Made by a program: the position numbers and the translations under genes. Below the pieces are notes generated by a model that made no database searches, had not been told where the DNA came from, and saw nothing but the letters and a program-made list of their open reading frames with translations. From NCBI RefSeq assembly GCF_048403405.1, contig NZ_CP183129.1: a stretch of DNA of 64,000 bases, one strand, 5' to 3'. This document shows, in pieces, positions 15,762 through 37,562 of the stretch. How positions within the stretch are numbered: the stretch's first letter is position 1; every line of letters begins with the position of its first letter. Source of the DNA: Escherichia coli (GTDB lineage Bacteria; Pseudomonadota; Gammaproteobacteria; Enterobacterales; Enterobacteriaceae).

Positions 15762-15773
15762 AAGCACACGGAC

Positions 15774-15815
15774 AGCCCCCTCGCCCCTCCGGGGAGAGGG
15801 TTAGGGTGAGGGGAA
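15774..15815. repeat. GC-rich dispersed repeat (box C-like), copy 1
   Basis: ccccctcgcccctccggggagagggttagggtgaggggaac between convergent thiQ and yabI; near-identical to the element at 21230..21272. Confidence 0.55.
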
Positions 15816-15842
15816 CAAACCAGCGCCGATGCAAACTATCCC

Positions 15843-19620: not shown

Positions 19621-21123
19621 ATGACGATTTTTGATAATTATGAAGTGTGGTTTGTAATTGGCAGCCAGCATCTGTATGGCCCGGAAACCCTGCGTCAGGT
19701 CACCCAACATGCCGAGCACGTCGTTAATGCGCTGAATACGGAAGCGAAACTGCCCTGCAAACTGGTGCTGAAACCGCTGGGCACCACGCCGGATGAAATC
19801 ACCGCTATTTGCCGTGACGCGAATTACGACGATCGTTGCGCCGGCCTGGTAGTGTGGCTACACACTTTCTCCCCGGCCAAAATGTGGATCAACGGCCTGA
19901 CCATGCTCAACAAACCGTTGCTGCAATTCCACACCCAGTTCAACGCGGCGCTGCCGTGGGATAGCATCGATATGGACTTTATGAACCTGAACCAGACTGC
20001 ACATGGCGGTCGCGAGTTCGGCTTCATTGGCGCGCGTATGCGTCAGCAACATGCCGTGGTTACCGGTCACTGGCAGGATAAACAAGCCCATGAGCGTATC
20101 GGCTCCTGGATGCGTCAGGCGGTATCTAAACAGGATACCCGTCATCTGAAAGTCTGCCGTTTTGGCGATAACATGCGTGAAGTAGCGGTCACCGATGGTG
20201 ATAAAGTTGCCGCACAGATCAAGTTCGGTTTCTCCGTCAATACCTGGGCGGTTGGCGATCTGGTGCAGGTGGTGAACTCCATCAGCGATGGCGATGTTAA
20301 CGCGCTGGTCGATGAGTATGAAAGCAGCTACACCATGACGCCTGCCACACAAATCCACGGCGAAAAACGCCAGAACGTGCTGGAAGCGGCGCGTATTGAG
20401 CTGGGGATGAAGCGTTTCCTGGAACAAGGTGGCTTCCACGCGTTCACCACCACCTTTGAAGATTTGCACGGTCTGAAACAGCTTCCTGGTCTGGCCGTAC
20501 AGCGTCTGATGCAGCAGGGTTACGGCTTTGCGGGCGAAGGCGACTGGAAAACTGCCGCCCTGCTTCGCATCATGAAGGTGATGTCAACCGGTCTGCAGGG
20601 CGGCACCTCCTTTATGGAGGACTACACCTACCACTTCGAGAAAGGTAATGACCTGGTGCTCGGCTCCCATATGCTGGAAGTCTGTCCGTCGATCGCTGTG
20701 GAAGAGAAACCGATCCTCGACGTTCAGCACCTCGGTATTGGCGGTAAAGATGATCCAGCGCGCCTGATCTTCAATACCCAAACCGGTCCAGCGATTGTCG
20801 CCAGCTTGATTGATCTCGGCGATCGTTATCGTCTGCTGGTTAACTGCATCGACACGGTGAAAACACCGCACTCCCTGCCGAAACTGCCGGTGGCGAATGC
20901 GCTGTGGAAAGCGCAACCGGATCTGCCAACTGCTTCCGAAGCGTGGATCCTCGCTGGTGGCGCGCACCATACCGTCTTCAGCCATGCGCTGAACCTCAAC
21001 GATATGCGCCAGTTCGCCGAGATGCACGACATTGAAATCACGGTGATTGATAACGACACCCGCCTGCCAGCGTTTAAAGACGCGCTGCGCTGGAACGAAG
21101 TGTATTACGGATTTCGTCGCTAA
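19621..21123 (+). CDS. araA: L-arabinose isomerase
   Basis: ORF 19621..21123, 500 aa. Confidence 0.96.
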
Positions 21124-21125
21124 GT

Positions 21126-21228
21126 AGCTGCATCAGGTGTGTAACGCCTGATGCGACGCTGGCGCGTCTTATCAGGCCTACACGCTGTGATTTTGTAGGC
21201 CGGATAAGCAAAGCGCATCCGGCATTGT
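21126..21228. repeat. REP (repetitive extragenic palindromic) element cluster
   Basis: Tandem palindromic units of the gcctgatgcgacgc / gcgtcttatcaggcctac / ggccggataag...gcatccggca type between araA and araD. Confidence 0.7.
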
Positions 21229-21229
21229 T

Positions 21230-21272
21230 TTCCCCCTCGCCCCTTTGGGGAGAGGGCCGGGGTGAGGGGAAA
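21230..21272. repeat. GC-rich dispersed repeat (box C-like), copy 2
   Basis: ccccctcgcccctttggggagagggccggggtgaggggaaac, directly upstream of the araD RBS; matches copy 1 at 15774..15815 with a few substitutions. Confidence 0.55.
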
Positions 21273-21291
21273 CGACCTCTCAGGAGTCAAC

Positions 21292-21987
21292 ATGTTAGAA
21301 GATCTCAAACGCCAGGTATTAGAAGCCAATTTGGCGCTGCCAAAACATAACCTGGTCACGCTCACATGGGGCAACGTCAGCGCCGTTGATCGCGAGCGCG
21401 GCGTCTTTGTGATCAAACCTTCCGGCGTCGATTACAACGTCATGACCGCTGACGATATGGTCGTGGTCAGCATCGAAACCGGTGAAGTGGTTGAAGGAAC
21501 GAAAAAGCCCTCCTCCGACACGCCAACTCATCGGCTGCTCTATCAGGCATTCCCGTCCATTGGCGGCATTGTGCATACGCACTCCCGCCACGCCACCATC
21601 TGGGCGCAGGCGGGCCAGTCAATTCCGGCAACCGGTACCACCCACGCCGACTATTTCTACGGCACCATTCCCTGCACCCGCAAAATGACCGACGCAGAAA
21701 TCAACGGTGAATATGAGTGGGAAACCGGTAACGTCATCGTAGAAACCTTCGAAAAACAGGGTATCGATGCGGCGCAAATGCCCGGCGTCCTGGTCCATTC
21801 TCACGGCCCATTTGCATGGGGCAAAAATGCCGAAGATGCGGTGCATAACGCCATCGTGCTGGAAGAGGTCGCTTATATGGGGATATTCTGCCGTCAGTTA
21901 GCGCCGCAGTTACCGGATATGCAGCAAACGCTGCTGAATAAACACTATCTGCGTAAGCATGGCGCGAAGGCATATTACGGGCAGTAA
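21292..21987 (+). CDS. araD: L-ribulose-5-phosphate 4-epimerase
   Basis: ORF 21262..21987; start trimmed to [19 protein letters not shown]... (231 aa). Confidence 0.95.
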
Positions 21988-22015
21988 TGACTGTATAAAA
22001 CCACAGCCAATCAAA

Positions 22016-37509: not shown

Positions 37510-37562
37510 AGCCTGATACAGGAAGGCCGGATAAGACGCGACCGGCGTCGCATCCGGCACTA
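37510..37562. repeat. REP element
   Basis: gcctgatacaggaaggccggataagacgcgaccggcgtcgcatccggcac between convergent apaH and folA. Confidence 0.65.

Follow-up and report, generated by a model that had tools for sequence, protein, structure and literature searches.

Structure of the araA–araD spacer

In the window, i.e. the whole 64-kb stretch of Escherichia coli DNA analyzed here, araA (a 500-amino acid open reading frame at positions 19621–21123, with the stop codon TAA at 21121–21123) is followed on the same, plus strand by araD (21292–21987, 231 amino acids from its ATG); both genes are named after the annotation of a 100%-identical E. coli record. The boundaries of the open reading frames delimit a spacer of 168 bp (21124–21291, up to the ATG at 21292), and all elements of the spacer described below are given on the plus strand. 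The initial annotation had placed at exactly these coordinates a REP cluster followed by a BoxC-like repeat, an arrangement that is borne out by the present analysis.

The spacer opens with a leader of 22 nt (21124–21145) that carries the REP remnant GTAGCTGCATCAGGTGTGTAAC. String matching and comparison with K-12 show that the leader resembles the tail of a z2 REP joined to the linker GCGCATCCGGCATTCAAC that is found between the K-12 units, and it can therefore be taken as a BIME-2 unit truncated to its 3′ tail, in accord with the 3.1 units counted by TRF in K-12. Next come a y-type REP in inverted orientation (21146–21181), which is a 36-nt imperfect palindrome (inverted repeat I2) with CTAC at its 3′ foot, a short (S) linker of 13 nt (21182–21194) and a z2-type REP (21195–21224), the 30-nt palindrome GTAGGCCGGATAAGCAAAGCGCATCCGGCA with GTAG at its 5′ foot, which occurs three times with the same sequence in K-12. 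The labels y and z2 are putative assignments based on the BIME-2 organization and on the consensus sequences of the two types in the Gilson/Bachellier nomenclature.

REPs are 30–40-nt imperfect palindromes with GTAG at the foot, and a BIME consists of REPs paired in inverse orientation; in BIME-2, z2 and y are combined with a short linker and occur in tandem copies, the number of which varies among strains (Ton-Hoang et al. 2012, PMC3333891). Both palindromes of the spacer fit this description, with complementary feet (y ends in CTAC, z2 begins with GTAG); they are opposed across the linker, and the pair is extragenic, lying between the araA stop and the araD start. The tandem arrangement is variable among strains as well, with alleles of one, two, three and five 85-bp units, of which the window holds one. 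Recognition by TnpA-REP, DNA gyrase or Pol I is a further, biochemical property of the family. Ahead of BoxC, the spacer thus consists of one BIME-2 unit, in which the y and z2 REPs are inverted relative to each other, and of a truncated unit tail that precedes it.

The 57 nt that follow the REP pair (21225–21281) are present only in the BoxC allele and, in the alignment of five E. coli alleles, stand in place of the CGA of BoxC-free alleles. This segment contains the BoxC element (also denoted PIT or TMECO; 21228–21272, with the core at 21234–21269), which is of type B with one mismatch and includes a T-rich and a GAAA inverted-repeat flank. The final 10 nt (21282–21291) comprise the araD Shine-Dalgarno sequence AGGAG and its 5-nt spacing (AGGAGTCAAC), all in columns that are invariant among the five aligned alleles. 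The description of the spacer as built entirely of repeats holds for the REP pair, BoxC and the truncated tail; about 19 nt, namely, CGACCTCTC and AGGAGTCAAC, are not recognizably repeat-derived.

An independent inverted-repeat search identified five inverted repeats (I1–I5) in the spacer. As RNA, the y REP forms a hairpin of −21.7 kcal/mol (z = −5.19 relative to shuffled sequences) that begins 22 nt past the araA stop codon, the z2 REP forms a hairpin of −14.3 kcal/mol (z = −2.97), and the folding of the entire spacer yields z = −4.15. The BoxC hairpin has a free energy of −26.5 kcal/mol, but z = −1.45, so that its stability does not significantly exceed that of shuffled sequences with the same extreme composition; hence, the significance of BoxC rests on the sequence match rather than on folding. 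An alternative hairpin is possible, in which the leader sequence GCATCAGGTGT pairs with ACGCCTGATGC from the y REP 5′ arm (21130–21154; inverted repeat I5, also seen in the fold). This hairpin starts at 21130, 6 nt past the araA stop, and is in competition with the regular fold of the REP. The fold of 21124–21184 that includes this pairing has a free energy of −28.2 kcal/mol.

A search against Rfam over 20500–22000 (E ≤ 10) detected no above-threshold family in or around the spacer. Matches to naRNA4, the nucleoid-associated RNA derived from REP325, were obtained for the y REP (37.3 bits), which aligns to the 3′ hairpin of the family, and for the z2 REP (23.4 bits). Given that the best score is below the gathering score of 59.5 bits, the presence of a naRNA4 gene was rejected, the similarity reflecting only the common REP hairpins. 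The other matches in the same interval, mir-142 and Antizyme_FSE, are obvious chance hits. A REP pattern with an assumed 5-nt loop missed the ara REPs, and its only match in the window was a REP-like palindrome elsewhere, GCCGGATGCGACGCCGGTCGCGTCTTATCCGGCCTTC, at 37522–37558 on the minus strand.

Identity of the BoxC element

The element was compared with the BoxC/PIT/TMECO consensus CCCTCNCCC-N3-6-GGGNGAGGG-N3-GGGNGAGGG[G/T/C/-] (Holder et al. 2015, PMC4666352), which is matched exactly at 21234–21268(9) by the sequence CCCTCGCCCCTTTGGGGAGAGGGCCGGGGTGAGGGG. The pattern occurs twice in the 64-kb window, compared to 0.00 matches expected from 100 shuffles. The 36-nt core is letter-for-letter identical to K-12 TMECO no. 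3, a one-mismatch member of type B (Holder et al. 2015, Table 1, PMC4666352), and the flanks TTTTCC…GAAA, which are common to other type-B copies, define the extent of the element given above; K-12 copies share both the core and the type-B flanks. Like the family as a whole, of which 23 TMECO copies are found in K-12 (PMC4666352), the element is multi-copy and intergenic, with a second copy in the window at 15778–15813. The repeat initially annotated as "box C-like" is a true BoxC. It is, moreover, already catalogued: row 198 of Supplementary Table S8 of Holder et al. is the araA–araD copy of strain IAI1 (67131–67096; PMC4666352), although this copy is not discussed there by gene name.

With regard to the properties of the family, an oligonucleotide of the class to which the spacer element belongs, TMECO type B with one mismatch, forms a stable intrastrand triplex of the purine motif, a property of the single-stranded DNA, in vitro, with a Tm of about 70 °C, whereas in vivo DMS footprinting gave no support for a stable TMECO triplex (PMC4666352, Discussion). 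TMECO loci exceed control sites in variability (PMC4666352), and, as far as earlier work is summarized in Holder et al. (PMC4666352), BoxC/PIT displayed no promoter, terminator or polymerase-blocking activity in vivo.

The second copy (15778–15813, plus strand; type A with one mismatch) fills the 81-bp spacer between thiQ and yabI (15762–15842). In K-12 and IAI1, the same place is occupied by a REP pair (BIME) within a 113-bp spacer and, therefore, this one site can be occupied by either of the two repeat families.

Allelic variation of the spacer

In K-12 MG1655, the araA–araD spacer (66551–66834) is 284 bp long and consists of 3.1 tandem 85-bp units, as determined with TRF, each comprising a y REP, linker, z2 REP and TTCAAC, without BoxC. 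The K-12 length of ~280 bp given in the initial annotation is, thus, close to the measured one, and the two spacers do differ in length when compared directly. The difference had been suggested to reflect the REP copy number, which accounts for it in part, with three units in K-12 versus one in the window; the BoxC insert contributes as well. Relative to K-12, the window lacks two BIME-2 units (−170 bp) but contains the BoxC insert, which is absent from K-12 (+54 bp net).

To sample the population, BLAST was run with the gene flanks only, and the span between them was read in 57 evenly spaced E. coli records. The most frequent spacer lengths were 284 bp (19 records), 168 bp (17) and 199 bp (12), followed by 114 bp (8) and 454 bp (one record). 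Every sampled length equals 114 + 85n bp or 168 bp, the latter being invariably the length of the BoxC allele; the spacer is a length-polymorphic site that behaves as a variable-number tandem repeat. The 114-bp form (one unit) is represented by strain CUPS SST 5/1 and, judging by the alignment span only, by an ST131 strain and LF82; the 199-bp form (two units) was found in O157:H7 and O103:H2 12009; the 284-bp and 454-bp forms contain three and five units, respectively. The single 454-bp record is XL10-Gold (NZ_CP081008.1), a K-12 laboratory derivative, in which the excess over the 284 bp of K-12 reflects either a recent BIME-2 expansion or an assembly artefact. In UM146, araD appeared not to lie next to araA, but this is an artefact of the joining of BLAST matches, and the spacer in this strain is a normal one of 284 bp.

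Of the 5,426 complete E. coli genomes, 1,568 (29%) match a query spanning the junction between BoxC and araD over its full length; in the remaining ones, the exact match resumes at the Shine-Dalgarno sequence, window position 21282. The 168-bp allele is present also in IAI1, SE11, 55989 and HS, from which the window differs by six substitutions, all in the leader or the BIME (21124–21224), the BoxC part being identical. An identity to the window of 99% or more across the region is reached by only 107 records. The idea that the BoxC allele strictly follows phylogroup B1 was rejected, given that BoxC is present in HS (group A) and missing from O103:H2 12009 (group B1). The distribution is patchy, with K-12 and HS, both of group A, differing in the presence of BoxC.

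Outgroups point to the polarity of the change. In Escherichia albertii, the spacer is the 114-bp, one-unit form ending in …GGCACGAAGGAGTCAAC, and the 284-bp form is seen in Escherichia sp. MOD1-EC7003; BoxC is absent from both, and hence the BoxC allele is derived within E. coli. The variation in length arises by gain and loss of 85-bp units, and an event within E. coli put 57 nt in place of CGA, producing the BoxC allele. As seen in the five-allele alignment, where 57 nt correspond to these three, this was not a clean insertion. BoxC may have replaced a second BIME-2 unit, given that the TT following GGCA matches the inter-unit linker TTCAAC.

Spacers in other Enterobacteriaceae

One genome per species was scanned for the araD start, yielding 75 loci, and the spacer was extracted from the 72 in which araA lies directly upstream. 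In these 72 other Enterobacteriaceae species, the spacer is between 47 and 284 nt long and without exception strongly structured, with a median folding z of −3.8 (79% of the values are below −2 and 97% below −1). All 72 spacers contain at least one stable palindromic element, and none is a bare ribosome-binding site. The nature of the elements differs, however. Enterobacter cloacae has a single REP of a local type, and the short spacers of Leclercia and Lelliottia nimipressuralis (47–51 nt), which were not read individually, are assumed to be similar to it; Citrobacter and Salmonella have REP pairs; inverted pairs of BoxC are found in Kluyvera, Phytobacter, Enterobacter sp. kpr-6 and Buttiauxella brennerae; Klebsiella has a degenerate BoxC; and Kluyvera ascorbata combines a BoxC pair with a REP. 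One locus, from a record labelled Chryseobacterium sp. 18061 (CACSKA010000010.1), is an enterobacterial araA–araD junction with REPs and probably results from contamination or mislabelling.

Possible roles of the spacer

The scan for intrinsic-terminator-like sites (20900–21500, either strand) and the scan for sigma-70-like promoter sites in or near the spacer both gave no candidates; the BoxC hairpin is followed by AAACGACC, where an intrinsic terminator requires a run of T. The spacer, therefore, should be transcribed within the araBAD mRNA, in which it would form three independent GC-rich hairpins, those of the y REP, the z2 REP and BoxC. By blocking 3′-to-5′ exonucleases, these hairpins would most likely extend the lifetime of the araB-araA portion of the message beyond that of the araD portion. 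The araD Shine-Dalgarno sequence is predicted to stay essentially free. The local fold of the araD ribosome-binding region amounts to only −3.1 kcal/mol, and AGGAG has similar pairing probabilities in the 114-, 168-, 199- and 284-bp alleles; the predictions thus do not support an occlusion of araD translation by BoxC, and this possibility was rejected.

The initial annotation had also stated that REP clusters within operons stabilize the upstream mRNA. As a general statement, this is established for other operons: stabilization of upstream genes by REP/BIME is cited in a passage of PMC9023263 (Newbury et al. 1987; Khemici & Carpousis 2004). Literature searches for araA/araD in combination with REP retrieved no study of the araA–araD spacer itself. 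The explanation that best unites these observations, and in which we place considerable confidence, is that the spacer of the window is the BIME-2 plus BoxC allele of a length-polymorphic site, the hairpins of which likely stabilize the upstream araBA message. The identity of the elements and the population picture are direct results of the present analysis; stabilization is the most likely role of the hairpins by analogy with the REP stabilizers of other operons.

It is also quite possible, if somewhat short of probable, that the site is simply permissive, with REP/BIME and BoxC turning over in it without any effect on ara expression, and the last ~10 nt, which include the Shine-Dalgarno sequence, being the only part under constraint. 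Alleles ranging in length from 114 to 454 bp, some of them with BoxC, are all appreciably frequent and are scattered patchily over the phylogroups, and the coexistence at high frequency of four or five very different alleles is what neutrality would produce. In the same vein, the invariant part of the five-allele alignment is limited to the Shine-Dalgarno sequence and its spacing, and a BIME and a BoxC have been swapped at a second site in the window, thiQ–yabI. The unusual variability reported for TMECO loci (PMC4666352) and the lack of a known function of BoxC/PIT in the earlier work, as summarized there, are consistent with such turnover. In contrast, the retention of at least one stable palindrome in 72 of the 72 species, with a minimal spacer length of 47 nt and z below −1 in 97% of the cases, hints at selection for a hairpin.

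That hint leads to a further possibility, which appears rather unlikely, namely, that selection maintains a stable RNA hairpin, whatever its origin, in the spacer and that the E. coli alleles are natural variants setting the AraA:AraD ratio or the lifetime of the araBA mRNA. If so, the repeats would turn over while the structural function that they serve is conserved, with REP, BIME, BoxC pairs and REP plus BoxC being interchangeable. The never-empty slot is the only hint of such selection and is equally expected of a permissive site in repeat-rich genomes.

Transcription attenuation, with the BIME, and possibly a BoxC triplex or hairpin, cutting read-through into araD in a Rho-dependent manner and the number of units tuning the araD dosage, seems distinctly unlikely. 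BIME-associated attenuation has reportedly been observed in E. coli (Espéli et al. 2001), up to 168–284 nt of untranslated RNA separate araA from araD, and a varying copy number could serve as a rheostat; however, the terminator scan detected no intrinsic-terminator-like site at 20900–21500. AraD is needed to prevent the build-up of toxic L-ribulose-5-phosphate, so that strong attenuation would be harmful. Furthermore, PIT/BoxC had no terminator activity in the earlier tests as summarized in PMC4666352.

About equally improbable is a translational brake on araA, whereby structure near the stop codon would stall terminating ribosomes and lower the amount of AraA. Ribosome stalling is associated with REPs within 15 nt of a stop codon, as cited in a passage of PMC12306157. 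The leader–y REP hairpin, starting 6 nt past the stop, is inside this limit, but it competes with the REP's own fold, and the canonical y REP, at 22 nt, is outside the limit. Finally, a role at the DNA level, in which the BIME-2 would be a site for gyrase or a nucleoid protein and the G-rich non-template strand of BoxC would form a triplex promoting local rearrangement, is very unlikely: notwithstanding the in vitro triplex of the same-class oligonucleotide (Tm about 70 °C), the elevated variability of TMECO loci compared to controls and the hypervariability of the araA–araD locus, in vivo DMS footprinting does not support a stable triplex (PMC4666352), BoxC-free alleles vary equally in unit number, so that the variability does not require BoxC, and the BoxC allele is always 168 bp in the sample (n = 57).

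By itself, the arrangement is of little significance beyond confirming that a feature read by hand is real and was correctly named. From a practical standpoint, the K-12 reference lacks the BoxC that is found next to araD in about 29% of complete E. coli genomes, and constructs or primers based on the K-12 araBAD operon will mismatch many strains across the spacer. The spacer length (114, 168, 199 or 284 bp) is a simple marker that distinguishes E. coli lineages. The natural allele series provides a ready-made set for asking whether the REP number or BoxC shifts relative expression within the operon.

Comparison with known systems

In the REP stabilizers of malE–malF and other operons, as in the ara spacer, REP hairpins are located between cistrons, downstream of the gene that is expected to be stabilized; the function of the former has been demonstrated, whereas for araBAD it is inferred. 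Compared to the BoxC/PIT/TMECO family (Bachellier et al.; Hoyne et al. 2000; Holder et al. 2015), the araA–araD copy is structurally identical and likewise intergenic, and the same copy is present in IAI1; it is distinguished by its position within an operon, where it directly adjoins a REP and lies 12 nt ahead of a Shine-Dalgarno sequence, at a site without a copy in K-12. The K-12 araA–araD array shares with the window the y REP, the linker, the z2 REP, the truncated leader and the araD ribosome-binding site, and differs from it in having three units rather than one, a length of 284 rather than 168 bp, and no BoxC. Polymorphism of this kind, with expansion and deletion of BIME-2 arrays and insertion of BoxC at intergenic BIME sites, has reportedly been described at six loci of natural E. 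coli isolates (Bachellier et al. 1997, Genetics 145:551), and the same pattern is seen here at araA–araD and at thiQ–yabI. Thus, the arrangement is a typical BIME-locus polymorphism involving two long-known repeat families, i.e. a common and ordinary natural variant of a kind that is already known.
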